64,000 bases of DNA from an uncultured Collinsella sp. (GCA_902490325.1 CABUDJ010000001.1:6937-70936), one strand, 5' to 3'. Shown: positions 359-19,361, counted from the first letter of the stretch. Translations and numbers: made by a program. The notes: a model not told the origin generated them from the sequence alone.

Positions 359-901
359 GTGGGCGACGGGGTGCCGCAAGGCGTAGAATATCGCCCACCT
401 GTAGGGACCTGCAGCGATGCGGGCCCCGCTTCGTATGAAGGGGGTGTAACCGATGAAGATCGTATCCATCCCCAGGATTTCTTCGACCTCGTCGATGGCG
501 ACCGCGAGCTCATGCTTAAGCACAATCGCCCCTGCATCGTGGTGGTGAGGCTGCGTTCCCGTGGAAAGCGCAGGGACTTCGCCGTGCCGCTGCGTTCCAA
601 CATCGCCCCCAACGTGCCCAAAGACCAGTGCTTTGCGTTGCCGCCCCGCCCCACGACGCGCCCCGGCTGCCGCCACGGCATCCACTACATCAAGATGTTC
701 CCCATAACCAAGGCCTACCAGCGCCGCTTCAGGACCGAGGGCTCGGCCTACTACGAGACGCTCCAGCGCATCATCGACGGCAACACCAAGCGCATTGTCT
801 CCGAGTGCCAGGCATACCTCGACCGCTACGAGCGCGAGGGAAGGCCTCGCTTTGCCGTCGACATCGACCGCATCGTGGGGCTGCTGGAGGGCGAGAAGTA
901 G
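359..901 (+). CDS. ToxN/AbiQ-like type III toxin-antitoxin toxin homologue (putative endoribonuclease); N-terminus apparently disrupted by a 1-nt frameshift
   Basis: ORF 359-901 starts at a GTG. From IHPQDFFDLV onward, the blocks NRPCIVVVRL, RDFAVPLRS, GIHYIKMFPI and YYETLQRIIDGNTKRIV parallel the ToxN/AbiQ layout (MKFYTISSKYIEYL, YLAPLTS, LINLKFMIPI). A strong RBS (GAAGGGGG, 438-445) serves an ATG at 453 in a different frame that reads MKIVSIP. One extra C in the C-run 470-473 would give MKIVSIPQDFFDLV, a ToxN-type N-terminus. Confidence 0.45.
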   Translation: MGDGVPQGVEYRPPVGTCSDAGPASYEGGVTDEDRIHPQDFFDLVDGDRELMLKHNRPCIVVVRLRSRGKRRDFAVPLRSNIAPNVPKDQCFALPPRPTTRPGCRHGIHYIKMFPITKAYQRRFRTEGSAYYETLQRIIDGNTKRIVSECQAYLDRYEREGRPRFAVDIDRIVGLLEGEK

Positions 902-1435
902 GGCACCTCGGCTCAGTCTCGAGCCATGCGGAGTCGCTCCGCATTTTTGAACGCCGCGTGTGCGTCCCAAATACTTGAGAAACAAGCTGTGAAGTGCGGT
1001 GGCGCGCCCGTGCCCGTGTACAGCCATCGCCATCAGCGTCTGCGGTGCGCTACGATATCAGGTTGATTTTCAATCTCAACGCAACAGTCTGAGCGTACCC
1101 CGCGTTTCCGCAGCTAGCGCAACGCGGAAATAGCTCACGGCGCCTGGCCGCCGCCCCGTTTCCGCAGGTGGAGAGGCTATGGAGGCCGGTGCCCCCATGC
1201 CGCCTCCGCATGCTCCGCCAGCCCGCCGCGCAGCCGTTCCGGACTCAGCGCAACGGGCCCTCCGGCCCATGTCCCGGCCCGACGCCTACCCCGTCAGCGG
1301 TCCCTCGCCCCTCGCGGCCCTGGCCCTGTCGATGCAGCCGGGCGTGAGGTCGAGCTCGCCGGGCGCCAGCTCCTCTATCCCGAACACCCCATAGTCTTTC
1401 TGGGATAATGGCGTTATCGAGAAAGTGGGTGGGAA

Positions 1436-3115
1436 ATGGATTGCCAGTCTCTGTACGACGAGTTCGCGGACAAGGCGTTGGCGGACATCAAGCTATCGAA
1501 GAAGTTCGCAGGCGTCAATGAGTTCAACAGCGGATTCCTTTTTGGAACCGATGATTGCAATTGCGCAAGCATGAAGCAGATGCAGCGAAACTGGGCTGCA
1601 GCGGCGCCTGGCCTATTCGCTGACTTTGCAAGGAAGCTGGCATCTGGGCATTCCATCGAAACCTTCGACCTGCCATCCACGTCAAGATGGAAGAACGCCG
1701 GCTTCGGTTACATTGCGGACGGGGGGAAGCATGCATGCGTCATGCTGTGGCCAAGCATCGACCATAGCCCGCTTAACCACACTAAGAGCAACTCCATGTT
1801 CTGGGCGTTCGAGTTGGTGGAGAACGGGGAGGTTGACGACGTCTACCTTGTATGGCTTGCGGATGAGGCCAACGTCAAGCTCCGCGAGAGTCTCGGCTAC
1901 TGGTACGAGTCTTTCTCTCCGCGCGGCGTCAAGCACGTCTCTGCAACAGATTGGTTCGAGAGGACTTTCGGAAAGGAAGAGGCCGACCGTTTGACCGACG
2001 TGGCTGGCAGGGTGAGAACGGAGGGTCGACTTGTCCAGGGGTTCACGGTTGTTGCCCTGCCCACCGAGCATGAGCTCGGCTCCTTCAGACGAGAGCTCCT
2101 TCACGACTACGAGGCGATCGAGCTTCCTCTTATCAGGTACCGTCTGATGGGAAGAGGGATGTCGGAGCGCGACATCGATATCTTGGCGCGCAACATTCAG
2201 CGCAAAGATCTGTTCGAAATACTCTTCGGGCAAGCCAGCTTCGCCGTCAGCTTTCTGTCGTCAGAGTGGCGCTACAGGCTCAACACCCTCTCCGAGAATG
2301 TCGAGCAGACCGGGACGGTCGCTGGCTACATCAAGGCGATAGAGCAGATGATGTTCGACCTTCTTCCGCTTTGGGCGAACAGGGACTACAAGGTGGCGTT
2401 TGGCGCCGTAAAGGCCTGGAACCCTGCCGTCCCGCTCACCTCAGCCCTCCTGGCGGAGAAGGACAAAGAGGCAACGTTGGGCCCGCTTGCCTATCTATTT
2501 GCAAGCAACCAGCACAAATACTTCAACGTGCGCATCTACGATCCTGAGATTGATTACAAGTCCTTTCGCGAGCTCCTGTTCGGGCGGCTGCGGTCGTTCA
2601 TGGACGACACCCGCAATGGGAAGCTCCATAAGTCCAACTTCTACGACCTGGGCAAGGTTAGGGAAATCAGGGACGAGGTTCTTGATATCATGTTCATGCT
2701 GCTCGGCGGCCTACGGCTCGACGAAGAACAGCTCAAGTATCTTGACGGCATGAGAGCCCAGGGCGAATCGAGCCCCGACGACCTCGCGGAGATGGCAAAG
2801 GTCCTCAATGAGGGACTCGATGGTTTAACCGTCAGCTCAATCGAGAGCGCGCATCTCATCGCTATAGAGCATCATGACGACACCCACCTCTGGTCCATCG
2901 CCCTGTCGATAATGGGTGACGGGATCGACATCCATAACTCCTACTACTACTCTCCGCTGCGCGGGCTGTCGCAGGATGAAGAGCTGGAAAACATTGATCG
3001 CCTATTCAGAAGGTACCGCTCGGAAAGGTGCGCCTCTGATGCCCTTGCAGAGGTTCTGACCGAGTACGTCGTCTTTAGCGTTAAATCCAAGCCGTTTCAT
3101 GTCCCTTTGCAATAG
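1436..3115 (+). CDS. hypothetical 559-aa protein with a HEPN-type RNxxxH motif (candidate RNase effector); N-terminal ~250 aa unassigned
   Basis: Long ORF with a purine-rich stretch (GGGTGGGAA) immediately before the ATG, too close for ideal RBS spacing. The helical region reads YIKAIEQMMFDLL ... LFGRLRSFMDDTRNGKLHKSNF. The R-N-G-K-L-H motif is at nt 2612-2629 (R393-H398). I recognise no other family signature. Confidence 0.7.
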   Translation: MDCQSLYDEFADKALADIKLSKKFAGVNEFNSGFLFGTDDCNCASMKQMQRNWAAAAPGLFADFARKLASGHSIETFDLPSTSRWKNAGFGYIADGGKHACVMLWPSIDHSPLNHTKSNSMFWAFELVENGEVDDVYLVWLADEANVKLRESLGYWYESFSPRGVKHVSATDWFERTFGKEEADRLTDVAGRVRTEGRLVQGFTVVALPTEHELGSFRRELLHDYEAIELPLIRYRLMGRGMSERDIDILARNIQRKDLFEILFGQASFAVSFLSSEWRYRLNTLSENVEQTGTVAGYIKAIEQMMFDLLPLWANRDYKVAFGAVKAWNPAVPLTSALLAEKDKEATLGPLAYLFASNQHKYFNVRIYDPEIDYKSFRELLFGRLRSFMDDTRNGKLHKSNFYDLGKVREIRDEVLDIMFMLLGGLRLDEEQLKYLDGMRAQGESSPDDLAEMAKVLNEGLDGLTVSSIESAHLIAIEHHDDTHLWSIALSIMGDGIDIHNSYYYSPLRGLSQDEELENIDRLFRRYRSERCASDALAEVLTEYVVFSVKSKPFHVPLQ

Positions 3116-4280
3116 CATCTCGCTCGGCTCCCAGAGCGCTTTCAAGCATGGAGATATAGCCCTCGTGCGCCGCCTCGTAATCTTCGACGAACTGCCGAAG
3201 CGTATCGGCGCTGCATGACGAAAGGCCTCGAAAGGTCCTGGCCCAGGTGAGGCCTTTCGGCTTTGCAAGGAAAACGCCTCCTCCCATACCGAAAAGCCAA
3301 CGGTAGAGGGTTGGAGACAGCTGCGTCCTCACGCAGGCGTAGCCATGGGGATTGCCGGCATCGTCCTCGGAGACGTGCGAAAAAACCAAGTCGTGGCCGA
3401 ACCTGTCGTAGGCATATTGGGCGCAACGCCCCTCGACTTTGAGGAAAAGCGTCCTGCTGGTCCCGTCGCCGTACATGTCAATCCGCTCTCGGACGTCGGC
3501 GGCCACCCTTCTCCTAAGCTCGTCAACCCTGCCGGGGTTGCGGAGCTTCTTCCCCGATACCATCGCGTTCGTCATATGGTCCAGCCTGCGGAAAAAGGGT
3601 TCGCCCTCGGGAACCTTGTCAGTTGTCACGCAGGTCTCAAGATAGTAGTGTCCGAAGCTGTAGACGAGGCAAACGGGGTCTTCGGACGAGATCTGGCGGT
3701 CAATCAGCTCATCCCCGTTCATCAAGTGGCGGCGATAACGGAAGCAGAGCTGTTCGTTGTTGCGAATCGCGGAGGAGGCGGCGACCATCGCCGCAAGTGC
3801 GTTCATGCCCTCATGGGTTTCGCGCTCATCGACAAAGATCGATTCGACCATCTCTTCCAGCTCACGGTCGGACATGATTTCCTCGAGCTTCGCGCAAAGG
3901 CGAGCGCGCTGCTCCTCATTGACGAACTTGCTCGTTCTCACCATGCCCATCAGGAGCGAAGAGTCATGCGATGAAAAGGGCTTTGCCGCGCAGCGGTACC
4001 CGGTTTTCTCGCCCCGCCCGGGCTTTATGACTTCGGCTCCGAAGGGGCTGCATGATGCCAAAGCGTCGAGATCGGCGCGGACGGAGTTTTCGGCCACATT
4101 GCTCCCCGACAGTCGCGAGAGAACCCGAGCTATTTCCTGCGAGGTGAGTCCCTCGTTCTCGTCGGTGAAATCGCATAGCAGGCGCGCGACTGCCAGCAAG
4201 CGCTGTCGCGTTCCGCTCTCAATCGTGCCGCATCTCTCGAGAAAAGCCGCTATCTCAATGTCCGTCAGCTTCCTCGACAT
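3081..4280 (-). CDS. WYL-domain transcriptional regulator (N-terminal wHTH, central WYL-like domain, C-terminal extension)
   Basis: The N-terminal HTH segment is LTSQEIARVLSRLSGSNVAENSVRADLDAL. The WYL-like core is LCFRYRR...VCLVYSFGHYYLETCV. Start chosen at the ATG at 4280 (MSRKLTDIE), which has RBS GAGGAAACC; the longer ORF start at 4307 has no RBS. The 3' end overlaps the convergent 1436-3115 gene by 35 nt. Confidence 0.75.
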   Translation of the reverse strand: MSRKLTDIEIAAFLERCGTIESGTRQRLLAVARLLCDFTDENEGLTSQEIARVLSRLSGSNVAENSVRADLDALASCSPFGAEVIKPGRGEKTGYRCAAKPFSSHDSSLLMGMVRTSKFVNEEQRARLCAKLEEIMSDRELEEMVESIFVDERETHEGMNALAAMVAASSAIRNNEQLCFRYRRHLMNGDELIDRQISSEDPVCLVYSFGHYYLETCVTTDKVPEGEPFFRRLDHMTNAMVSGKKLRNPGRVDELRRRVAADVRERIDMYGDGTSRTLFLKVEGRCAQYAYDRFGHDLVFSHVSEDDAGNPHGYACVRTQLSPTLYRWLFGMGGGVFLAKPKGLTWARTFRGLSSCSADTLRQFVEDYEAAHEGYISMLESALGAERDAIAKGHETAWI

Positions 4281-4399
4281 GGTTTCCTCGTTTCTATTGA
4301 ATGACATTAAATATTGTAGGTCATTAGAGCGTCTGCATTCGAACGGCAGGGCTCTTATTCGAGAAACTGTCCTCAGTAAAACCCGTAGAGGAGGAACTG

Positions 4400-4570
4400 A
4401 TGACCGACAAGAGCCGTTTGGAAGATAAGCACTTCGAAAAGGCGGGAAGTGGCCGCGACATGGACACGTGGTTCTTCAGGTTGATGGCCGCCGCCGTGAC
4501 GTGCATGACCGTGGCGCTCCTCGCTGGAATGGCATGCCACATCGCCCTCACGCTCAAGCTGCTCGCCTAG
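4400..4570 (+). CDS. small membrane protein (56 aa), hypothetical
   Basis: Too short for the ORF track. Strong RBS GAGGAGGAA sits 5 nt before the ATG at 4400. Sequence is MTDKSRLEDKHFEKAGSGRDMDTWFFRLMAAAVTCMTVALLAGMACHIALTLKLLA, with one C-terminal hydrophobic helix. Divergent from the WYL regulator. Confidence 0.5.
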   Translation: MTDKSRLEDKHFEKAGSGRDMDTWFFRLMAAAVTCMTVALLAGMACHIALTLKLLA

Positions 4571-4594
4571 ACTAACCCCACGAAAGGAACGACC

Positions 4595-4825
4595 ATGGAC
4601 AGCAAGAACATCGCAAAGGCCGCCACCGAGCTCGTCGACTCGCCCGAGGGTGCGCTGAAGACCGTCAGGGAAGCCATCGGGTACGCGCTCGAGGTCAACC
4701 CAACGAAGGAGCAGGCCGCCATTGCGGTCGCCGCGCTGATGGCGTCGGTCGCCTTCTATGCGATCAAGAAGAACTACAGTTTCGCATACGACAAGCTGTC
4801 GTTCACCGCGCCGTCGGCCGGGTAG
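4595..4825 (+). CDS. small hypothetical protein (76 aa) with one hydrophobic helix
   Basis: RBS GAAAGGAA precedes the ATG at 4595. The hydrophobic segment is AAIAVAALMASVAFYAI. It follows the 56-aa ORF by 24 nt, so the two are probably co-transcribed. Confidence 0.55.
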   Translation: MDSKNIAKAATELVDSPEGALKTVREAIGYALEVNPTKEQAAIAVAALMASVAFYAIKKNYSFAYDKLSFTAPSAG

Positions 4826-4850
4826 TGCGAGCGAGGGAAACGCCCAGAAG

Positions 4851-4886
4851 GAGGGCCGGAGCCATAGGCCCCGGCCCTCTCTCGTT
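4851..4886. terminator. GC-rich hairpin between convergent genes
   Basis: GAGGGCCGG (4851-4859) pairs with CCGGCCCTC (4871-4879), followed by TCTCGTTT. Confidence 0.4.
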
Positions 4887-8498: not shown

Positions 8499-8693
8499 CT
8501 AAAACGCCTTCTCGTTCAAGAATTCCCTGAACGCGGGAATGTCAAAGCCAACGAGACCACGCCCGCGCTCTCCAATGACGCCGTCCTCCAGGAGGCGGCG
8601 TTTGTATTGGCTTGCGTAGTTGCTGGCGACGCCCATGCGTTTGGCTATCTCCGAGACCCTGCTGGGGCCAGAATCGAACAGAAGACTGAGGGT
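8499..8693 (-). pseudogene. C-terminal wHTH fragment of an ATP-binding (AAA-type) protein, 5'-truncated
   Basis: Only the tail LSLLFDSGPSRVSEIAKRMGVASNYASQYKRRLLEDGVIGERGRGLVGFDIPAFREFLNEKAF looks protein-like. Upstream of it the frame degenerates and runs into the opposite-strand ATPase gene. Confidence 0.4.
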
Positions 8694-8772
8694 GAAAATC
8701 GGGAGTTCTATTCCCGATTTTGACCGATTTAGGTTTGTGCGAGATAATGAACTCCGAACAGGAGGCGATTCT

Positions 8773-9981
8773 ATGTACATCGAGCGCGAAATTGAACAGA
8801 CGATAGATTCGATGCTGGGGCAGGGAAAAGTTGTCCTGGTGACCGGGGCGCGCCAAGTTGGGAAGACGACGGTTCTCAAGCAACATCTGGGCGACCGATT
8901 CGACTATGTTTCGATGGAGAACCCGCGGGATTATCTTCTTGCAAAAGAGGATGCCGCCCTGTTTTTCGAGTCTCATGATCTGCCGATCATCATCGATGAG
9001 ATTCAGCGCGTGCCTGAGCTTTTTTCTCCGGTGAAGTGGGTTGTTGATCAATCAGAGGAGAAGGGTCGAATCGTCCTCACGGGATCCCAGACATATCACC
9101 TCATGAAAGGTGTGAGCGAATCTTTGGCGGGGAGGATCAGAATTCTGGAGATGCCCTCCCTAAGCTTGCGAGAGCTCGTTGGCGGTTCCCAGAGCCCTCG
9201 TCCGTATATTCCCAAAAAGATTTCCTTGGCCTCTAAGATGTCTTCGGGAAATATTTGGAACATCATCCATAGGGGTTCGATGCCCGAACTGCAAGACCCA
9301 AATATCGATTGGGACTCCTATTATTCCGACTACGTTGCCGCATATCTCGAACGCGATGTTCGCGATCTTGTAAACGTGAAGGATGAAGCGAAGTTCTACA
9401 GCTTTATGGTCGCGTGCGCAGCGAGAACGGGGCAACTGTTGAATGCCACCGATATTGGAAACACCGTTGACGTCGACCGTAAGACGGTAAAGGCTTGGCT
9501 CTCGGTTTTGCAGGCGTCGAACATCGTTCGGATTGTCGAGCCCTTTTGGCCTAATGTCGATAAGCGTCTGACCAAGACCCCAAAGATATTCTTCATGGAC
9601 ACGGGCCTTGTTTGTCATCTTACGAGATGGATAACACCGGAGCAATTGCGCAACGGGGCCGCGGCGGGGCATATATTTGAGACGTTCGTTGTCTCAGAAA
9701 TTTTGAAGAGCTTTATGAATGCGGGGAAGAGCCTTCGTGATGTATGGTTCTACCGGGATCAAAAGAAGCGCGAAATCGATTTGCTCATCCAAGAGGGTCA
9801 TATCTTACATCCCGTCGAGGTGAAGATGTCTGCTACGGTGAGTAGAGACGCGGTGAAGAACTTTACCTGTCTTGACGGCCTATCTGGCTATGAGATCGGG
9901 TTTGGGCACGTTGTCTGTCAAACTCCGGAACCATACCTCATTACCAAGGATGTCCAGGCGGTCCCGGTGTGGAGCATATGA
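8773..9981 (+). CDS. AAA-type ATP-binding protein with DUF4143-like C-terminal domain
   Basis: Walker A is GARQVGKTT and Walker B is PIIIDEIQ. Start at MYIEREIEQ with RBS GGAGGCGA. By eye the gene is more AT-rich than its neighbours. Confidence 0.85.
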   Translation: MYIEREIEQTIDSMLGQGKVVLVTGARQVGKTTVLKQHLGDRFDYVSMENPRDYLLAKEDAALFFESHDLPIIIDEIQRVPELFSPVKWVVDQSEEKGRIVLTGSQTYHLMKGVSESLAGRIRILEMPSLSLRELVGGSQSPRPYIPKKISLASKMSSGNIWNIIHRGSMPELQDPNIDWDSYYSDYVAAYLERDVRDLVNVKDEAKFYSFMVACAARTGQLLNATDIGNTVDVDRKTVKAWLSVLQASNIVRIVEPFWPNVDKRLTKTPKIFFMDTGLVCHLTRWITPEQLRNGAAAGHIFETFVVSEILKSFMNAGKSLRDVWFYRDQKKREIDLLIQEGHILHPVEVKMSATVSRDAVKNFTCLDGLSGYEIGFGHVVCQTPEPYLITKDVQAVPVWSI

Positions 9982-10051: not shown

Positions 10052-10160
10052 ACTTTGTCGTCTTTGCCTTGCATGTCTAATGGCGGGGCCCGGAGCTCAG
10101 TATTTACTGCGCTCCGGGCCTCGTAGGTTTGTGGCTTGGACCAGCTCGATTGCCGTCGTC

Positions 10161-12401
10161 CTAGTCAAACAAGCTCGGCATGTCGTTTTCCTTCATGAGG
10201 GCACCGGCGGAGGGGAGGCTCTGCGCGGTGAACTTCTCGGCGGAGACGCCGGCGCCGAGGATGTCCTCGGTCGTGCCGACGGTGGTGACCGAGCGGCCCT
10301 TCTTGGCCGTGAAAGCCTGGACGCCCTGCGTGTTGGTGGTCGTCTTGGTCTTGAGCAGCGACGTGTTGAAGTTCATCAGACGGTAGTCGCTCGAGACCAG
10401 CGCGATGTCGCGATCTTCCTTGAGTACCTGGGCATACAGCAGCTTGCTGCCACCGTAAATGGCGTTCTTGAGGCGCTTGCGGTTGGTCTTGGTGACGTAT
10501 CCAGAAAGCGCGACGCGCACCACGCGGCCGTTCTCAAAGACAAACAGCACGTCGGCCTTGTAGTCCTCGGGGTCGATGACCCAGATGACGCTCTCGTCGG
10601 GTTCCATCTCGAGATCGGTCGGCAGGTACGAGCCCAGCTGTGCCGACTTGGTATCCTCAAACGCCGCGACTTTGCACTTATACACCTGGCTCTTGTTGGT
10701 AAACACGAGCAGCTCGTGCGTATTGGAGGACGGGAACTCGATAAAGGGTTTGTCGCCGTCCTTGTACTTGAGCGTGGTCGCCTTCTTGAGCACGCGGTCC
10801 GTCATCTTCTTAAGATAGCCATCGCGCGAGAGCATGATGGTAACCGGGTACTCCTCGACCTCGGGCTCCAGGCTTACCTCGATGACCTCGTGGGGCTCGA
10901 TCCTGCCCGTGCGGCGCGGCATCACGTACTTCTTGTTGACCGCGGCCAGCTCGTCGCTGATGACCTTCTTGATGTTCTCCTCGCTGGAGAGGATCTCCTC
11001 AAGCTCGGCAATCTCGCCCTCAAGCTTGGCAATGTCCTTGGTGCGGTTGAGGATGTACTCCTCGTTGATGTTGCGGAGCTTAAGCTCGGCAACAAACTCG
11101 GCCTGGGTCTCGTCGATGTCGAAACCCTTCATAAGGTTGGGCACGACCTCGGCTTCGAGCTTGGTGCCGCGGATGATGGCGATGGCCTTGTCGATGTCGA
11201 GCAAGATCGCCTCGAGGCCGTGCAGCAGGTGCAGGCGCTCGGACTTTTTGCCCAGGTCAAAGTTAATGCGGCGACGCGTGGACTCAATACGCCACTTGAC
11301 CCACTCGTGCAGAATCTGGCGCACGCCCATAACGCGAGGGTAACCATCGACCAGCACGTTGAAGTTGCACGAGAACGAATCCTGCAGCGTGGTCGAGCGA
11401 TAGAGCTTGGCCATGAGCTTGTCGGGGTCGACGCCGCGCTTAAGGTCGATGGCGATGCGCAGACCCGAAAGGTCGGTCTCATCGCGGATGTCGGCGATCT
11501 CCTTGACCTTGCCCTCCTTGGAGAGCTTGACGATGCGCTCGATGATGACATCGGTCTTGGTGGTGTAGGGAATCTCGTACACCTCGATGATGCGCTCTTC
11601 GGGAATCCAGCGCCAGCGGGAGCGAATCTGGAAGCTGCCAAGGCCGGTCTCGATGATCTTCTCCATCTCCTCGCGACGGTAGATAATCTCGCCGCCGGTC
11701 GAGAAGTCGGGCATGGGCATGTACTCGAGCAGGTCGCAGTCGGGATCCTGCAGGTAGTGCATGGTGGCAGTACAGACCTCGTTGAGGTTGAAGCCGCAGA
11801 TGTCGGATGCCATGGCGACGCCGATGCCCTTATTGGCCGAGACAAGGATGTTGGGAAACGTGGTGGGCAGCAGGCGCGGCTCCTTCATGGCGCCGTCGTA
11901 GCTGTCGACGAAGTCGACCGGATCCTTGTCGATGTCCTTGAAGATCTCGGCGCTGATGGGGGAGAGCTTGGCCTCGGTATAACGCGAGGCGGCGTAGCTC
12001 AGGTCGCCCGAATAGTACTTGCCAAAGTTGCCCTTCGACTCTACGAAGGGGGCAAGCAGCGCTTCGTTGCCCGTCGCCAGGCGCACCATCGTCTCGTAGA
12101 TCGCGGCGTCGCCGTGCGGGTTGAGCTTCATGGTCTGACCCACGATGTTGGCGCTCTTCTGGCGTTCGCCCTTGAGCAGACCCATCTTGTACATGGTGTA
12201 GAGCAGCTTGCGGTGCGAGGGCTTAAAACCGTCGATCTCGGGGAACGCACGCGAGACGTTGACGCTCATGGCGTAGGGCATGTAGTTGACCTCGAGCGTC
12301 TGCGTGATCGGCTGGTCGGTGACCTCGGAGTGCAGGCCGATGACGTTTTCGGCGTTGACCTGCTTTTTCTTTGGCTGGTTCTTCGTCTTCTTCTTTGCCA
12401 C
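10161..12401 (-). CDS. DNA gyrase/topoisomerase IV subunit A (type IIA topoisomerase; its short length is ParC-like)
   Basis: Motifs KPSHRKLLY, NPHGDAAIYETMVRL and the catalytic AASRYTEAKL are present. It lies immediately downstream of the B subunit. Confidence 0.95.
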   Translation of the reverse strand: MAKKKTKNQPKKKQVNAENVIGLHSEVTDQPITQTLEVNYMPYAMSVNVSRAFPEIDGFKPSHRKLLYTMYKMGLLKGERQKSANIVGQTMKLNPHGDAAIYETMVRLATGNEALLAPFVESKGNFGKYYSGDLSYAASRYTEAKLSPISAEIFKDIDKDPVDFVDSYDGAMKEPRLLPTTFPNILVSANKGIGVAMASDICGFNLNEVCTATMHYLQDPDCDLLEYMPMPDFSTGGEIIYRREEMEKIIETGLGSFQIRSRWRWIPEERIIEVYEIPYTTKTDVIIERIVKLSKEGKVKEIADIRDETDLSGLRIAIDLKRGVDPDKLMAKLYRSTTLQDSFSCNFNVLVDGYPRVMGVRQILHEWVKWRIESTRRRINFDLGKKSERLHLLHGLEAILLDIDKAIAIIRGTKLEAEVVPNLMKGFDIDETQAEFVAELKLRNINEEYILNRTKDIAKLEGEIAELEEILSSEENIKKVISDELAAVNKKYVMPRRTGRIEPHEVIEVSLEPEVEEYPVTIMLSRDGYLKKMTDRVLKKATTLKYKDGDKPFIEFPSSNTHELLVFTNKSQVYKCKVAAFEDTKSAQLGSYLPTDLEMEPDESVIWVIDPEDYKADVLFVFENGRVVRVALSGYVTKTNRKRLKNAIYGGSKLLYAQVLKEDRDIALVSSDYRLMNFNTSLLKTKTTTNTQGVQAFTAKKGRSVTTVGTTEDILGAGVSAEKFTAQSLPSAGALMKENDMPSLFD

Positions 12402-12446
12402 GATTTCCTCTTGAACTTCTTATGGGCCGTCGTTATCGATTTGCTG

Positions 12447-14444
12447 CTATTGCAGGTCCAGCTGGTCCAGATATTCCTTGCCGTGCTCGGAGATATGGCG
12501 CTTGCGGCCTGCCTCGTCGTTGCCCAGCAACAGGTTGAACATGGTTTCCATCTTGGTGACGTCCTCGGGCTCCACCTTGATCAGACGACGCGTCTCGGGA
12601 TTCATGGTGGTGAGCCACATCATGTCCGGGTCGTTCTCACCAAGACCCTTGGAGCGGTTGATGGAGCACTTTTGGTCGCCAATCTCCTTGAGGATGCCGT
12701 TCTTCTCGAGCTCGGTGTAGGCAAAGTAGGTCTTTTCTTTGCAGTTGATCTCGTAGAGCGGCGACTCGGCGATATACACGTAGCCTTCGTCGATAAGTGT
12801 TGGAACCAGGCGGTAAAGCATGGTGAGCACGAGCGTGCGGATGTGGTAACCGTCGACGTCGGCGTCCGTACAGATGATGACCTTGTTCCAGTTGAGGTTG
12901 TCCAGGTCAAAGGCACCAAGGTTTTTGATGCGCTTGTCCTTGATCTCCACGCCGCAGCCCAGCACGCGCATGAGGTCCATGATGATGTCGGACTTAAAGA
13001 TGCGCGGATAGTCTTCCTTCAGGCAGTTGAGGATTTTACCGCGGACGGGCATAACGCCCTGGAACTCGGCATCGCGCGAGGTGCGAATGGCGCCTGCTGC
13101 CGAGTCGCCCTCTACGATGTAGATCTCGCGGCGGCTCTTGTCCTTGGAGCGGCAGTCGATGAACTTCTGCACGCGGTTGGCCATGTCGGTCTTCTGCTGT
13201 AGGTTGGTCTTGATGCTCTGACGCGTCTTCTCGGCGTTCTCGCGCGAACGCTTGTTGATGAGCACCTGCTCCATGATCTTGTTGGCAGCGTCTTTGTTCT
13301 CGATTAGGTAGGTCGAGAGCCGCTCCTTAAAGAAGGCCGTCATAGCCTGCTGGATAAAGCGGTTGTTGATGGCCTTCTTGGTCTGGTTTTCATAGGACGT
13401 CTGGGTGGAGAAGCAGTTGGTCACCAGCACCAGACAGTCCTGGACGTCCTGCCACTTAATGCCGCTCTCGTTTTTGTTGTATTTGCCCTGTTGCTTAATG
13501 TAGGCATCGATGGCGCTGGTCAGAGCGCTGCGGGCCGCCTTCTCGGGTGAGCCACCGTTCTCGAGCCACGATGAGTTGTGGTAGTACTCCTGCATCGTGA
13601 AAGTGCGCGAGAAGCACATGCACGCGGTGATTTTTACGTTGTAATCGGGCAGGTCCTCGCGATCGCGACCGCGACGATCGGCCTCGATAAAGAAGGGCTC
13701 GGTGAGGTAGTCGGTACCGACCTTCTCGAGCACGTAGTCCTCGATGCCCTTTGGATAGCAAAAATCCTCTTCGGTAAACTCGCCGTCGTCGCCCTCAATA
13801 CGCAGGCGGAAGGTCACGTTGGCGTTGACCACGGCTTGGCGGCGCATGGTCTCGCGATACCAATCGTGGGGGATGCTGATGGAGGTAAAGACCTCAAGAT
13901 CGGGGCGCCATTTGATGGTGGTGCCGGTACGGTCCTCGTCGCTGGGCTCAATCTCGAGTGCCTTCTTTTTGGCACCGACGACCTTGCCCTTCTTAAAGTG
14001 CAGGGAGTACTTGTTGCCGTCGCGCCAAACCGTGACGTCCATGTATTCGGAGGCGTACTGGGTCGCGCAGGAGCCCAGGCCGTTGGTGCCGAGCGAGAAG
14101 TCGTAGTCGCCGCCCTGGTTATTGTTGTATTTGCCGCCGGCGTAGAGCTCGCAAAAGACGAGTTCCCAGTTAAAGCGCTTCTCGGAGGGGTTCCAGTCGA
14201 GCGGGCAGCCGCGGCCGTTGTCCTCTACCTGAATGGAACCATCGCGAAAGGCGGTAAGGGTGATGAGCTTGCCGTAGCCCTGGCGCGCCTCGTCAACGGC
14301 GTTGGACAGGATCTCGAAGGCGGCATGCGCGCAGCCGTCGAGTCCGTCCGAGCCAAAGATGACGGCGGGGCGCAGGCGTACGCGCTCCTCGTCCTTGAGC
14401 TGGCGGATACTGTCGTTACCATAGTTTGCGGTGTTTTTTGCCAT
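12447..14444 (-). CDS. DNA gyrase/topoisomerase IV subunit B (type IIA topoisomerase ATPase subunit)
   Basis: GHKL ATPase N-terminus, TOPRIM motif YIVEGDSAAG, MPVRGKILN and GLGENDPD. Confidence 0.95.
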   Translation of the reverse strand: MAKNTANYGNDSIRQLKDEERVRLRPAVIFGSDGLDGCAHAAFEILSNAVDEARQGYGKLITLTAFRDGSIQVEDNGRGCPLDWNPSEKRFNWELVFCELYAGGKYNNNQGGDYDFSLGTNGLGSCATQYASEYMDVTVWRDGNKYSLHFKKGKVVGAKKKALEIEPSDEDRTGTTIKWRPDLEVFTSISIPHDWYRETMRRQAVVNANVTFRLRIEGDDGEFTEEDFCYPKGIEDYVLEKVGTDYLTEPFFIEADRRGRDREDLPDYNVKITACMCFSRTFTMQEYYHNSSWLENGGSPEKAARSALTSAIDAYIKQQGKYNKNESGIKWQDVQDCLVLVTNCFSTQTSYENQTKKAINNRFIQQAMTAFFKERLSTYLIENKDAANKIMEQVLINKRSRENAEKTRQSIKTNLQQKTDMANRVQKFIDCRSKDKSRREIYIVEGDSAAGAIRTSRDAEFQGVMPVRGKILNCLKEDYPRIFKSDIIMDLMRVLGCGVEIKDKRIKNLGAFDLDNLNWNKVIICTDADVDGYHIRTLVLTMLYRLVPTLIDEGYVYIAESPLYEINCKEKTYFAYTELEKNGILKEIGDQKCSINRSKGLGENDPDMMWLTTMNPETRRLIKVEPEDVTKMETMFNLLLGNDEAGRKRHISEHGKEYLDQLDLQ

Positions 14445-14836: not shown

Positions 14837-17800
14837 CTAGCGAGGCCTATCCGAATTGACCTCATTGGCGGTGTCGGTTTCGAGCGCCGTGCGGCGGGCG
14901 CTGTAGGCGACGAGGCCGGCACCAGCTGCGGCGAGTGCTGCAGCGGCTGCCATGAGGGGAGCGTTGACATCGCTCGTGCCGGCGAGCGGGCCCGCTTTTC
15001 CGGGGCGCTTGTTATTGCCGTGATCCTTGCCGCTGCCAGAGCCACTGCCGCTACCGGAGCTGCTTCCGCCGGAGCCACCTCCACTCGTGCCGCCCTCGCC
15101 GTCGACCGTCATCGGTGCATCGTGAAGCCCCGTCGTATCCGCGTTGTCGCATACGCCGACCTGAACTTCTGAGCGTTCGCATGCCGCGTCGGGCACATGA
15201 AGCTCGTGCAGCACGGCACCCAGCGCCGAGTTTGCGCCCGGTCGAATTTCCTCGAGCGTTACGGGATCGAGCGCCACCAGATTACGCGCCTTCGCATACA
15301 GCGTTACGCGTTTGCCCACTTCGTCGCTCCAACTCTCGGGGATGGCGAAGCTCATGCGGAACTGTGCCGTGCAACCTGGTGCCAGCACGGCGTTGCCACT
15401 GTCGGCTACCAGTGGGTGCGTTGCAAAAGGTGTGCCCAGCGTTTCGAGCGCGTACTTCACGTGTGTCATGTCGTTGGCCGAAGCGTCCTCGGCAAGCTCT
15501 GGATCGTAGATCGACGCCATGCGTGTGTTCGCTCCGAACCCGATGGATGCGCTGGAGAACGGCTGGCTGGAGCCCTCTCGGTACAGATCGATCGTGCCGG
15601 CGGTCAGCAAGGTGTTGCCGTCGTTTCGCACCGTGACCATGAAGGATTCGCCTGCTGCTCCAGGCACCACCGCGCCCGAGGTAGCGACTGCGCCCGTCGG
15701 AGTGGCACACGCCACCAAGGGTACTTCGATGCCGTGCAGCTCTGCCTCGCTCTTCTCCGCGCTCACAATGTGCGTAGCGAGCGCGGAGAGCATGCTCCCC
15801 GACGTCAAAAATGTCGTTATCTGATCGACGGGATGGTCCAGCTCGCACATCACGAACGGCTCCGTAAACAGATCGTCTGCCAAGGTGCTGGCGAAGATGC
15901 GGAAGTGCTTGCCCATCACTGCTACCGGGTTGCCTTCTTCGTCGTAGGTTTGTCCCACCTTACCATCGGTGTTCTCTACATAGAGCACGCACCTGCCGTT
16001 GTTGCTTACGCTAAACGATGCCGGGCCACAGCCTGCGGCACCCACGGGCTGCGTTGCAAATGCCGATGCGCCTCGTGCCCAAGTAATATGCTGCAGTTGC
16101 TCGTTGACGGTAGCCAAAAAGCCCGTGTGCTGCGGCCACGGCACCGCGTGGGGTACTGTAGCATCTGGTGACATAACGCCCCAGCCCGCAATGGACTGGC
16201 CGATCACGGCGTACGATGCACAGCCACAACCGCCTGCAGTCTCGTATGCAACGGGCACCACCATTTTGCCGTTGATATTCTCGGGCGCGCCGAGCTCGAT
16301 GCTCGACGGTGCCTGCGGAAAGCGGAGGACCTGACGGAACGTGAGACTGTCGCCCGAAACGTCCGACCACAGGGTAAAGCACTCCAGCGCAACCTCGGCC
16401 TCGCTGCCGAGCGCCTTTTCTGCGGTGGTTCCGCGGCGGTGGAGGTAGGCGCCCGACAGGCGCCCGTCGACAAGTGTCTTGCCCACCGTGATGCGTGGGC
16501 ACTGCAGGCAATGGTAGCCATCCTCCTGAAGGCGGCCGCGCGAGATGCTGCGCCACGACGTGTGCGATATCACGCGGGTCTCGTCACTACTTATGCGCAG
16601 GCGCACAACGGACAGTATGCCGGATGTGCTCGCCGTATCGAAAAGGGTGTTGTCGCCGGCGGGGCGCTCGCCCGAGACCAGCAGCACGTAGGCGTCCTGG
16701 TTTCCCCTCCCGTCTGTATATTCCACCACGTCGAAGTCGTAATCGAATATGCCGTCGCGCTCCACATCGCCCTCGCCAAACCCAAGGGGGAAGTCCACGG
16801 GCGTGGGAGCGGACCACGTGCCGTTCGTCTTTGTATGCACCACCAGGCGCGAACGACCATTCTCGCCGTAGCGCACCGAGGCGATACGGAATAGGCACTC
16901 CACGCCGGCAACCATTGCCAGCTTCATGTGAGCTTCGCTGAGCACGCCGGAAAACAGCACGTTGTCGCTCGAGGGTTTTATGCCGCCACGCTCGTCCTCC
17001 GACACGCCGGCAGAATTGGCGTTCGGATCAGCGACGGCGTTCGTTGCCTGACCGATGTAGGTGTACTCATACATCGGCGCGGCGTTTTCGTCGTTCTCTA
17101 TCAGTGCATGGACGAAATGCTCGATTTGTCCCGTGTCGTCGCTCTCCGCGTCTGCCTCGAGCTCAATGCGCGTGACCGCCCGGTCCCAATCGCGTACGGT
17201 AGGCGCGACGTTTATCGCGGTGGCTGCAACCTCGGCGCGCGCGAGCAGCTCGGCGTTGGTGACAATGGTGGCCGATGCGATAAATTGCGGAACGCCGCCC
17301 GCCTCGATGTTGCCGGGCGTGCCGAAGCGGGCATCCAGCGTGTAAGGCGTATCTCCTCCCAATGCGAGCTTAGAGCGCTGGAGCACATACTGATCGCCAT
17401 TGTTCACCGACATATTCCACGAATCGATGAGTGTGGGCCACGACCCCGACCAAGCCTTGGTGGTCCACTTGAACATTACGAACTGGAGTATCACGTCGAC
17501 ATCGACGTCTGCACCTACGCGCAGCCGCGGAAGCTGGTGTCCATCTGCCTTCTCGTACCCAATGAACAGCGTGAGGGATGCGGCGCCGCGCACGGCAGAC
17601 GAAGCGACGCCTGCAACGCCGGCTCCAAAGGTGACGGCAAGCCCGATCTGGATAGTGAATGAGCCCGACGTGTTGGAATAGTCGAGCGAAATGTTTTTAA
17701 AAAACGCCGCGCCGCTGCCGTGCGTGTGGGCACCCACGGCGAGTGCCAGTTTTGCCAGCACCCAGGGGTTGACGTTCAGGAAAAACGGCACCGGTCCTAG

Positions 17801-19204
17801 GGTAAACTGCTCGGTCCAATTGAGATCGGTTCTTACCTGAAAGAGGGCCTTAATATTGCCGTATGCGGGGTCGTTGTTGTTGCCCCAGGTTTTGCCCACC
17901 CAATCGTAGGCGAGCGAGCCGTACAGCTGTGTGGCGATATCCATCGTGAACAGCGGCGTGCAATGGTGGCGAAGGAGCTTGGTGTTTCTTGGATCGGTGC
18001 CCGAACCGGCACTCATGCTTTTGTACTGATTCCACTTCCCCTCCATCTCGTCGAGGTAGCGGTTTGCCTGCTTGGCGCCCGACTCACGCGGTGACTTCTT
18101 CCAGTACTCCGGATCCGGATTGCCCGAATCGTTCATATAGCTGGCTGGTTTGTATCCTCCGCCAAACAGCACGTATCCAGCAAACGAGAAATCGAAGAGG
18201 ATCGGAAATGTGGGCATCCAGCACGTGAACTTATTGCCGCCGATGCCGGGAAACGCCGCGGGGAAATCAAACGGAGCGATCTCTTGGTCCATGGTAGTAG
18301 GAATGATGGTGGTCGAGCCCGATTCTGCCTTTGCCGCCGGCGCAGTGACAACGGCCATGGGGGAGGAGAGCGTGTAGGTCTTGCCCTGGTAGTCGAGGAC
18401 AAAGCGCAGCTTGCATCCTTCTTCCAGAAGGCTCGATGCCACGTCGAGGAACTTGTCTTCGAGCGTGAACGTCGCCAGATTATCCGCGCCCGATGCGCTG
18501 GCCTTGACTTGGCCAATCTGCGTGACGGTTTCGGATGAGCTGCCCGCAGCGGGCATCACTTTATTGATATGCAACGTTGCCTGCCCGCCCTGCGGCAGAT
18601 GGGCCTGCACGGTAAAAGCGTGCGTGTCGGGCTGATCGTTTGCTGCTTCGTCCGCTGGCAATGCCATGAACGTGGCTTCAGCGTACTGGATGTCCCATTC
18701 GTCGAATGTGAGCTGGCGGAAGTACGGCTCGCTATCGGAGCGCGGACGCGTGGGCGCGGTTATGGCGGTGCCGCCCTGGATACGCGCAAGGGGAATCTCG
18801 ACATCACGGTAGCCCGCCATGCTAATGGAGATGCCGCCGTTAAAGTCGTACGCGTCGAGAAGCGTTGCCTCGTCCGCGTAGCCTTCCGAAAGAGGGGCGA
18901 TCTCAAAGATGGCTGTGCCTTCTTCATCGGTCGTGGCGGTGAGCTGCTTGCCTGCGGCATAGCGCGATGTGAGCGTGACCTGGGCACCTGTGATGGGCGT
19001 ATTCTTGTTGGCGACGTCGACCACGACCACACCAAACATGGTGCGCGAGAGAACGAGCACCCTGAAGGGGTCTTTTTCGTCGGCATAGGCTTCGGTGGGC
19101 GCGATCGGCAATATGAAGGCGTTTGCGCTTCCCGGCACGCGCGGCAACATAATGCTCGCCAGCGAGGACGCTCCGGCAACAAGTAGCGAACGGCGATCAA
19201 GCAT
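14837..19204 (-). CDS. large (1455 aa) secreted, cell-surface-anchored protein of unknown function
   Basis: Start chosen at MLDRRSLLVAGASS (twin-arginine-type signal, ANA-F cleavage-like site), with RBS GGGATGGGAG. A carboxypeptidase-regulatory-like beta segment lies near the N-terminus. The C-terminus has a Gly/Ser linker (SGGGSGGSSSGSGSGSGSG), then PLAGTS (LPxTG/LAxTG-like), then a hydrophobic helix and a basic tail. Confidence 0.8.
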   Translation of the reverse strand: MLDRRSLLVAGASSLASIMLPRVPGSANAFILPIAPTEAYADEKDPFRVLVLSRTMFGVVVVDVANKNTPITGAQVTLTSRYAAGKQLTATTDEEGTAIFEIAPLSEGYADEATLLDAYDFNGGISISMAGYRDVEIPLARIQGGTAITAPTRPRSDSEPYFRQLTFDEWDIQYAEATFMALPADEAANDQPDTHAFTVQAHLPQGGQATLHINKVMPAAGSSSETVTQIGQVKASASGADNLATFTLEDKFLDVASSLLEEGCKLRFVLDYQGKTYTLSSPMAVVTAPAAKAESGSTTIIPTTMDQEIAPFDFPAAFPGIGGNKFTCWMPTFPILFDFSFAGYVLFGGGYKPASYMNDSGNPDPEYWKKSPRESGAKQANRYLDEMEGKWNQYKSMSAGSGTDPRNTKLLRHHCTPLFTMDIATQLYGSLAYDWVGKTWGNNNDPAYGNIKALFQVRTDLNWTEQFTLGPVPFFLNVNPWVLAKLALAVGAHTHGSGAAFFKNISLDYSNTSGSFTIQIGLAVTFGAGVAGVASSAVRGAASLTLFIGYEKADGHQLPRLRVGADVDVDVILQFVMFKWTTKAWSGSWPTLIDSWNMSVNNGDQYVLQRSKLALGGDTPYTLDARFGTPGNIEAGGVPQFIASATIVTNAELLARAEVAATAINVAPTVRDWDRAVTRIELEADAESDDTGQIEHFVHALIENDENAAPMYEYTYIGQATNAVADPNANSAGVSEDERGGIKPSSDNVLFSGVLSEAHMKLAMVAGVECLFRIASVRYGENGRSRLVVHTKTNGTWSAPTPVDFPLGFGEGDVERDGIFDYDFDVVEYTDGRGNQDAYVLLVSGERPAGDNTLFDTASTSGILSVVRLRISSDETRVISHTSWRSISRGRLQEDGYHCLQCPRITVGKTLVDGRLSGAYLHRRGTTAEKALGSEAEVALECFTLWSDVSGDSLTFRQVLRFPQAPSSIELGAPENINGKMVVPVAYETAGGCGCASYAVIGQSIAGWGVMSPDATVPHAVPWPQHTGFLATVNEQLQHITWARGASAFATQPVGAAGCGPASFSVSNNGRCVLYVENTDGKVGQTYDEEGNPVAVMGKHFRIFASTLADDLFTEPFVMCELDHPVDQITTFLTSGSMLSALATHIVSAEKSEAELHGIEVPLVACATPTGAVATSGAVVPGAAGESFMVTVRNDGNTLLTAGTIDLYREGSSQPFSSASIGFGANTRMASIYDPELAEDASANDMTHVKYALETLGTPFATHPLVADSGNAVLAPGCTAQFRMSFAIPESWSDEVGKRVTLYAKARNLVALDPVTLEEIRPGANSALGAVLHELHVPDAACERSEVQVGVCDNADTTGLHDAPMTVDGEGGTSGGGSGGSSSGSGSGSGSGKDHGNNKRPGKAGPLAGTSDVNAPLMAAAAALAAAGAGLVAYSARRTALETDTANEVNSDRPR

Positions 19205-19361
19205 CTTTGGCTCCCATCCCGCAGGTATCGGTGGAAATAATCCAATTTTGCGAGAAGGTGCCCCGTGGCGGTAGTGCCGTTCGATGGCCAAAATGTCCAA
19301 TTTGAGTGCGCGAAAGCGTCAGGCCCCCGGAGCGCTTTCAATACGCCGGGCAGTTTGGCCG

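Follow-up and report, generated by a model that had tools for sequence, protein, structure and literature searches.

Among the ribonucleases (RNases) of abortive-infection (Abi) and CRISPR systems, Csm6/Csx1, the AbiD/AbiF-type Abi_2 proteins and RnlA/LsoA are HEPN proteins, for which R-N-x3-H, with asparagine directly after the arginine, is the canonical signature. WYL proteins are ligand-sensing regulators, among them BrxR (BREX), CapW (CBASS), PafBC and DriD, and in type VI-D CRISPR systems the WYL protein WYL1 acts directly on the RNase Cas13d. Here, a gene pair from an uncultured Collinsella sp. was analyzed in which these themes may meet. It is located on a stretch of 64,000 nucleotides (nt; GCA_902490325.1 CABUDJ010000001.1:6937-70936), in the following referred to as the window, and consists of gene A (1436..3115, + strand), an open reading frame (ORF) of 559 amino acids (aa), and the convergent gene B (4280..3081, − strand), which encodes a WYL-domain protein of 399 aa. 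The central region of protein A holds an R-N-x-x-x-H motif that is nearly invariant throughout a large protein family, and WYL genes adjoin A-family genes in several arrangements. Judged from these comparisons, the cassette carrying both genes is a promising candidate, as yet unproven, for a new module of phage defence or abortive infection that relies on an RNase. The pairing of a WYL regulator with a HEPN-like effector would be a variation on known themes (Csm6/Abi HEPN RNases, BrxR/CapW and Cas13d-WYL1); the A family itself is uncatalogued in Pfam, NCBIfam, PADLOC and PHROGs, large and structurally unmatched.

Like the HEPN RNases of Abi and CRISPR systems, protein A combines an all-helical domain with a near-invariant R-N-x3-H and is found on mobile elements, and its top structural neighbour, at a non-significant score, is Csm6. 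Its variable, sensor-like alpha/beta N-terminal domain precedes the core in the same way as CARF precedes HEPN in Csm6. Unlike the known HEPN families, however, A has neither a profile match nor a significant fold match, and it possesses additional invariant residues (EW, K..EQ and R412) as well as an optional C-terminal domain. It further differs from Csm6/Csx1 in the lack of a CRISPR association and in an N-terminal domain without a conserved polar motif, for which a CARF ligand pocket is not evidenced.

Protein B resembles BrxR, CapW, PafBC and DriD in its WYL domain, its putatively HTH-like (helix-turn-helix-like) N-terminus and its C-terminal extension, and is approximately 70-100 aa longer than typical BrxR/CapW proteins. 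Further parallels to BrxR/CapW are a palindrome on the -10 box of B, an overlapping operon headed by B in relatives, and alternative partners. In contrast to these regulators, the B gene of the window runs convergently to A and reaches into its 3′ end, and there is no common operator at the A promoter. With Cas13d and WYL1, the pair shares the linkage of a candidate HEPN-type RNase to a WYL protein, and the PADLOC model that matches both B and a second, 340-aa WYL family next to A relatives is a CRISPR-associated WYL model. However, neither a CRISPR array nor Cas genes are found near A, the protein carries one motif and not two HEPN domains, there is no guide-RNA machinery, and the N-terminus of WYL1 is a ribbon-helix-helix, compared with the winged-helix-turn-helix-like (wHTH-like) region of B.

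A further point of comparison is Bunzi (the TerB protein BnzA plus BnzB), an experimentally validated defence system whose mechanism is unknown (10.1101/2022.05.11.491447). In eleven of 157 A-family proteins, a BnzB-like module (PADLOC BnzB, best E 2e-49) precedes a complete A-like region in one fused chain; the BnzB-like parts occur in fusion relatives of approximately 860-1030 aa and, weakly, in two relatives of approximately 700 aa. Unlike in Bunzi, A and B of the window have no Bnz match, and a BnzA/TerB gene was not seen in the cassette. A and the BnzB-like part are not homologous, and the idea of BnzB as a diverged duplicate of A was rejected (hhalign probability 0.1).

Protein A and its conserved helical core

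The gene pair had come to attention through an earlier reading of the window from its sequence alone (the sequence-only reading), which described a 559-aa protein with a HEPN-type motif whose gene overlaps a 399-aa WYL gene tail to tail. These basic observations proved accurate. The ORF exists at 1436..3115 (+), its 3′ end overlaps that of B by 35 nt on both strands (3081..3115), and all quoted peptides were found, namely YIKAIEQMMFDLL (residues 298-310), LGPLAYLF (348-355) and LFGRLRSFMDDTRNGKLHKSNF (381-402) in A, and GHYYLETCV in B. The candidate catalytic Rx4H motif, R393-N-G-K-L-H398, maps to nt 2612..2629 (+).

The sequence of A had no match in Pfam, NCBIfam, PADLOC, PHROGs or the PDB sequences, the latter being searched with the single sequence as well as with an 82-sequence profile. 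A word-indexed search returned 10 clusters of close relatives, one of which is a hypothetical protein of Slackia isoflavoniconvertens; a second such search with a 50-sequence alignment led to the already-known close relatives only, and tblastn against the plasmid database gave no match. With a profile search of 1.84 billion representatives, the family grew to 624 members at E≤1e-3 and 482 at E≤1e-10, each of these representing a cluster at 50% identity. Fifty diverse members matched no family in Pfam, NCBIfam, PADLOC or PHROGs, except for BnzB on the fusion proteins, which agrees with the earlier statement that the pair corresponds to no named system. The 157 proteins retrieved fall mainly into three length classes of approximately 400-470 aa (34 proteins), 540-660 aa (92) and 800-1100 aa (11).

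AlphaFold2 predicted the whole of A with a mean predicted local distance difference test score (pLDDT) of 80.4 as an alpha/beta N-terminal domain, a helical core and an alpha/beta C-terminal domain. The variable N-terminal domain spans residues ~47-200, the conserved all-helical core ~205-445, and the variable C-terminal domain ~460-559. When residues 205-445 were modelled on their own with an 82-sequence alignment, the prediction was again all-helical and reached a pLDDT of 94.3 and a predicted template modelling score (pTM) of 0.92.

Residue conservation was counted in 158 aligned A-family sequences, most of them ~20-30% identical to A of the window. At the motif, position 393 is arginine in 154 sequences (three gaps, one leucine), position 394 is asparagine in 153, and position 398 is histidine in 154 (four gaps). 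Equally conserved are several residues upstream of it: K300 and E303 are kept in all 158 sequences, E277, Q304 and G297 in 157, Y298 in 156 and W278 in 155, and downstream of the motif R412 is kept in 152. The exceptions at R393, N394, H398 and R412 are mostly gaps in fragment sequences. S272, T292 and N401 are further near-invariant core residues, and the near-invariant residues are the invariant columns of two family alignments as well. Conservation is confined to the central helical core; no polar residue of the N- or C-terminal domain reaches 60%, except for E182 (81%) in the linker helix. An RNxxxH would not be rare by chance in a single protein of 559 aa (we estimate a few percent), but here it forms part of the conserved core of a family, and on this alignment evidence it is more than a chance occurrence.

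The A family thereby shows the feature by which HEPN proteins are recognized, a conserved Rx4-6H with a polar residue (N, H or D) after the arginine. Compared with 350,542 PDB chains by Foldseek, the core found Csm6 HEPN proteins at ranks 1, 3, 5, 9 and 26, all of them non-significant. For the whole chain, the best match was Csm6 6tug (E 0.016, template modelling (TM) score 0.16-0.21), followed by weak restriction-endonuclease-like matches (EcoO109I, Shedu, AF2093). An active PD-(D/E)xK nuclease in the N-terminal domain was considered and rejected, as conserved acidic or lysine residues were not found there. Because of the canonical R-N-x3-H, its near-invariance and the all-helical domain, a HEPN-type RNase is the most likely chemistry of A, and HEPN a likely, though undemonstrated, fold.

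WYL proteins as partners of A

The longest ORF containing B extends over 3081..4307 (−) and would encode 408 aa. However, B homologues begin with MSRKLT, which corresponds to M10 of this ORF, and that ATG is preceded, at a distance of 4 nt, by a GAGGAAA ribosome-binding site; the true B gene is therefore 4280..3081 with 399 aa, the length already given by the sequence-only reading. Protein B comprises a putatively wHTH-like N-terminal region, a WYL domain at residues ~178-245 and a further stretch at its C-terminus.

As had been proposed, B belongs to the WYL-domain proteins. It matches the CRISPR-associated WYL models of PADLOC (PDLC01652, E 1.6e-8; PDLC01457, E 2.4e-6), and Pfam WYL (PF13280) scores just below the gathering threshold in B and three diverged homologues (E 3e-4 to 2e-3). 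Of the 34 clusters in the B family, six have a precomputed PF13280 assignment, and NCBI uses the name 'WYL domain-containing protein' for one. With a 30-sequence B profile, the same segment aligns weakly (E 0.06-1) to five WYL-type PDB proteins, namely 8tp8, whose depositors called it a DeoR-family regulator, and four chains entered as 'WYL domain-containing protein'. The Pfam HTH profile gave no match on B and its homologues. By eye, the N-terminus resembles a wHTH, with the conserved pattern RLLAV..L..FTDE..GLT..EIA......ENSV..DL.AL, and PDLC01457 aligns to residues 43-345.

The pairing itself was followed through homologous loci (numbered L001 onwards). B is convergent with A in the clade of the window, in L005-L010 (A 38%, B 59% identical) and in L004 (A 36%, B 39%). 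In L036 and L047 (both Ca. Olsenella) and in L093 and L095, B lies directly upstream of A on the same strand, with overlaps of 1 nt in L093 and 11 nt in L095, where A has 591 aa. A second WYL family of 340 aa (PADLOC WYL, E 2e-10) adjoins distant A members; its gene is located upstream of A in L023, L029 and L046, and convergent in L059 and L039. Homology between B and this family could not be substantiated (hhalign E 0.05), and the two were treated as independent. The conserved pairing with a WYL gene that had been predicted thus persists among proteins as little as 36% identical, occurs in a convergent and a same-strand arrangement, and extends to another WYL family unrelated to the first. 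Since the adjacency was kept through an inversion and acquired twice, it argues for a functional link between A and the WYL genes. The 3′ ends remain close in the convergent relatives, with an overlap of 11 nt in L005, a gap of 13 nt in L004 and an overlap of 4 nt in L059.

B homologues are also found with other partners. In L096 (6261..7460, −) and L097, a B homologue (37% identity) faces, tail to tail, a 399-aa GTPase of the MMR_HSR1 type, whose hydrophobic C-terminal half includes a membrane segment, and this pair directly adjoins a type III-A CRISPR-Cas operon (cas6, cas10, csm2...); it may represent a different WYL-controlled effector. In L098, the B homologue precedes a protein outside the A family. 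Such swappable partners fit the expectation for a regulator module. Conversely, A occurs without B. The A homologue P0004 (L001, 5944..7854; 54% identical) is preceded by a 518-aa protein with SLFN_AlbA_2, HATPase_c_4 and HTH_24 domains and by an 85-aa ORF, and is followed by an EcoRII-type methylase/endonuclease pair. Because a WYL partner is missing from ~90% of the distant A-family loci that were sampled, B would be an exchangeable accessory regulator or sensor and not an obligate half of the system, and A an effector able to work alone.

The mobile cassette, its putative control signals and its surroundings

The sequence-only reading had described a two-gene module. The pairing of A with a WYL gene stands, but the unit has to be redrawn as a 3.5-kb cassette of four ORFs, to which B is accessory. 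By blastn, window positions 1386..4885, which contain the A promoter, A, B, the small ORFs C and D and a terminal hairpin, recur at 92.6-98.5% nt identity in L011 and L017-L022. The homology stops sharply at both ends, and the flanks in these loci are unlike those of the window. L011 belongs to a Slackia conjugative element with ParA/ParB, a relaxase, TrbL, TraG and a SpaA-type adhesin; L017-L022 are Collinsella aerofaciens loci, of which only the left flank is common with the L011 element. The cassette is mobile and moves between flanks, including those of conjugative elements.

Relatives of A are found on mobile elements and near defence genes, which supports the sequence-only reading. A relatives adjoin HNH, methylase, GmrSD and MutH genes, and also EcoRII restriction-modification. 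In several Streptococcus prophages, an A-family member is the last gene, following the holin, the lysin and two serine recombinases; examples are L099 (Streptococcus phage Javan405, 36486..38222) and L100 (phi-SsuSC05017_rum). In phi-SsuSC05017_rum, a cluster of aminoglycoside/streptothricin resistance comes after the A-family gene. Distant members are located near serine recombinases, DUF4143 ATPases, Fic/SoFic, DRT reverse transcriptases, HEC-05 and mad3. Among the loci inspected, no A-family gene had cas genes beside it.

With regard to control signals, a putative A promoter/operator was read from the sequence at 1396..1425 (+), where an extended -10 element TGGGATAAT (1401-1409) lies between the arms of the inverted repeat CTTTCT/AGAAAG. 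A matching arrangement, CTTTTC..TGAGATAAT..GAAAAG, precedes the 36%-identical A homologue in L004. In L005, GCTGATTGGCCTGTAATATA is present twice in tandem just 5′ of the A homologue (~2250..2300), a putative operator architecture unlike the inverted repeat of the window and L004. Upstream of B, an imperfect palindrome, AATGACATTAAAT|ATTGTAGGTCATT, lies across the TACAAT -10 box at 4300..4325. It is partly conserved, with the related elements GACATATAATATCTGATGTCAT and ACATAAAATATTTGAGGTCAT upstream of B in L005 and L004, and is likely to be an autoregulatory operator of B. No terminator was predicted between the 3′ ends of A and B in the overlap at 3081-3115.

The remaining part of the cassette is occupied by two small ORFs and the hairpin. 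ORF C (4400..4570, +; 56 aa) is divergent from B, has a strong AGGAGG site and encodes one hydrophobic segment. It is 27% identical to a 61-aa ORF at the equivalent position in L004, and both share a W-F-x-R-x-M-A motif; C is a tentative member of the system. ORF D (4595..4825, +; 76 aa) likewise has one hydrophobic segment. ORFs of 76-78 aa are found at its position in L011, L004 and L005, with homology not demonstrable beyond L011. B homologues in general often have small divergent ORFs upstream. At the right cassette end, a GC-rich hairpin was read at 4851..4879 (+), formed by GAGGGCCGG, an 11-nt loop and CCGGCCCTC, and it is retained there in L011 and L017-L022.

Two statements of the sequence-only reading on the surroundings fared less well. 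An AT-rich patch was not confirmed: the guanine-plus-cytosine (GC) content over 1-5 kb is 0.57-0.61, compared with 0.50-0.64 across the window, so that an AT-rich island around the cassette was rejected. The neighbouring gene described as ToxN-like, a 180-aa ORF at 359..901 (+), does show a weak similarity to TenpIN, but this lies below the cut-off (NCBIfam E 5e-7, 29.9 bits vs 90; phrog_8049, 6e-5). Antitoxin-type repeats were not found either; there are no ToxI-type tandem or direct repeats upstream of the ORF in the window or in the near-identical L013, and Tandem Repeats Finder returned only two short repeats of ~2 copies each near the ORF. It also lies outside the mobile cassette, as the homology with L011 and L017-L022 starts at 1386.

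The flanks of the cassette in the window contain MerR, CMD/cupin, HxlR, FMN reductase, DUF4143 ATPase and gyrB/parE-like genes. The AAA_14 + DUF4143 ATPase gene (8620..9981, +) is located 3.7 kb from the cassette, and its family recurs in 3-4 of 133 neighbours of distant A-family members. Two long ORFs further along have no Pfam match, one of 1487 aa (14837..19300, −) and one of 1040 aa (10080..13202, +). The latter overlaps antisense ORFs, including the gyrB/parE-like 12447..14444 (−), and is therefore probably spurious in a genome of ~58% GC.

Proposed mechanism, rival explanations and meaning

We give a probability of about one half to the reading that A, borne on mobile elements, acts as an effector through a latent HEPN-like RNase, has variable sensor domains and is governed by a WYL sensor/regulator in this clade. 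A would be the effector of an anti-phage or abortive-infection module, its helical core would act as a HEPN-like, metal-independent RNase with R393, N394 and H398 as catalytic residues, and E277/W278, K300/E303/Q304 and R412 would line the active site. A dimer is probable because each chain holds a single motif. The fast-evolving N- and C-terminal domains are expected to set the trigger or target specificity and to hold the enzyme latent. B would serve as a WYL sensor/regulator that autoregulates via the palindrome over its own -10 box and adds a layer of control on A in this clade. This could be transcriptional control of A, as suggested by relatives with B and A in one overlapping operon, or B might act on the A protein or its RNA substrate, as WYL1 does on Cas13d.

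A number of results weigh against this reading. Foldseek searches with the whole chain and the core against the PDB, and with the core against BFVD, returned nothing at E≤1e-3, and the matches of the core to Csm6 (5yjc, 6tug, 8pe3) are weak, with E 0.37-1.7, TM 0.25-0.34 and a probability of ~0.2. The HEPN profiles of Pfam, NCBIfam, PADLOC and PHROGs matched neither A nor the 50 diverse members. Thus, the HEPN assignment of the sequence-only reading holds with regard to a near-invariant Rx4H with asparagine after the arginine, but it gained neither a HEPN profile nor a significant Foldseek match for a model with a pLDDT of 94. Approximately 63 of the 70 sampled distant A-family loci are devoid of a WYL gene. 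In the window genome, the cassette is not within a defence island, its neighbours being redox, regulatory and housekeeping genes. No operator common to the A and B promoters was found, so that control of A by B is only putative in the convergent layout. Finally, no paper describing the A family was found in the literature on Bunzi/BnzB and on WYL and HEPN defence.

The same genes could also be read as a toxin-antitoxin (TA)-like addiction or stabilization module of conjugative elements and prophages, with A as a growth-arresting toxin and B as its autoregulated antitoxin or repressor, which would serve the maintenance of the element and not phage defence. The B-then-A operons with overlaps of 1-11 nt and the palindromic B promoter recall the layout of type II/IV TA systems, the cassette occupies an equivalent cargo position in two diverged conjugative elements, and the TenpIN-like toxin gene adjoins it. 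However, most A-family genes are solitary, be it at prophage ends, as stand-alone forms of 420 aa or as BnzB fusions, and A therefore needs no dedicated antitoxin. B homologues, moreover, pair with unrelated partners, and as ligand-sensing regulators WYL proteins are not known as antitoxins. We consider an addiction module unlikely, bearing in mind that addiction and defence roles are not mutually exclusive.

It is rather improbable that B does not control A at all, but regulates ORFs C and D or only itself, with A as an independent single-gene system sharing the cassette. The adjacency of A with two unrelated WYL families in two orientations is difficult to reconcile with such independence, and in the overlapping same-strand pairs the B promoter must drive A. 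The small ORFs that regularly lie divergently upstream of B homologues would fit such a regulatory target, but in the homologous loci compared their similarity is weak (C) or undetectable beyond L011 (D). Independence would be in line with the promoter-like element of A, whose inverted repeat is unlike the B palindrome, and with the ~90% of sampled distant loci that have no WYL gene.

That the A core is no HEPN RNase but another enzyme or a non-catalytic binding module with a convergent RNxxxH, acting for example in DNA targeting, nucleotide signalling or mobile-element regulation, would agree with the missing significant sequence or structure match to a HEPN protein, with E277, W278, K300, E303 and Q304 being as invariant as the R and H, beyond minimal HEPN families, and with the weak whole-chain restriction-endonuclease-like matches, yet it is rather unlikely given a canonical R-N-x3-H within an all-helical domain, best structural neighbours that, though weak, are consistently Csm6 HEPN domains, and an N-terminal domain whose lack of conserved acidic and lysine catalytic residues makes an active PD-(D/E)xK nuclease unlikely.

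Returning to the reading of A as a WYL-governed RNase effector, a broader proposal may be attached to it, tentatively and with the odds somewhat against it. The A family could be an unrecognized, widespread anti-phage effector of gut Bacillota and Coriobacteriia, a divergent HEPN-like RNase with hypervariable sensor domains, which would act solo on prophages, as Bunzi-type fusions in some lineages, and under the control of WYL sensors gained at least twice independently (in Coriobacteriia and in some Clostridia). If true, this would amount to a new named defence system and to natural WYL control of an RNase outside CRISPR. The BnzB-like fusions offer a new handle on the uncharacterized Bunzi system. 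Even if A proves to be no RNase, a Pfam entry is warranted for the family as a well-conserved and mobile domain that lacks a structural match.

Members of the A family are common in Collinsella of the human gut, in Clostridia and in prophages of Streptococcus, and annotation of the DefenseFinder/PADLOC type currently overlooks them. The repeated, independent recruitment of WYL proteins provides a compact system in which to ask what WYL domains sense during infection, and the A-WYL pairs offer a way to tell transcriptional control from direct action on the RNase, as in WYL1/Cas13d. Should A indeed serve in defence as an RNase effector, a function and an active site open to testing would be assigned to a large family.

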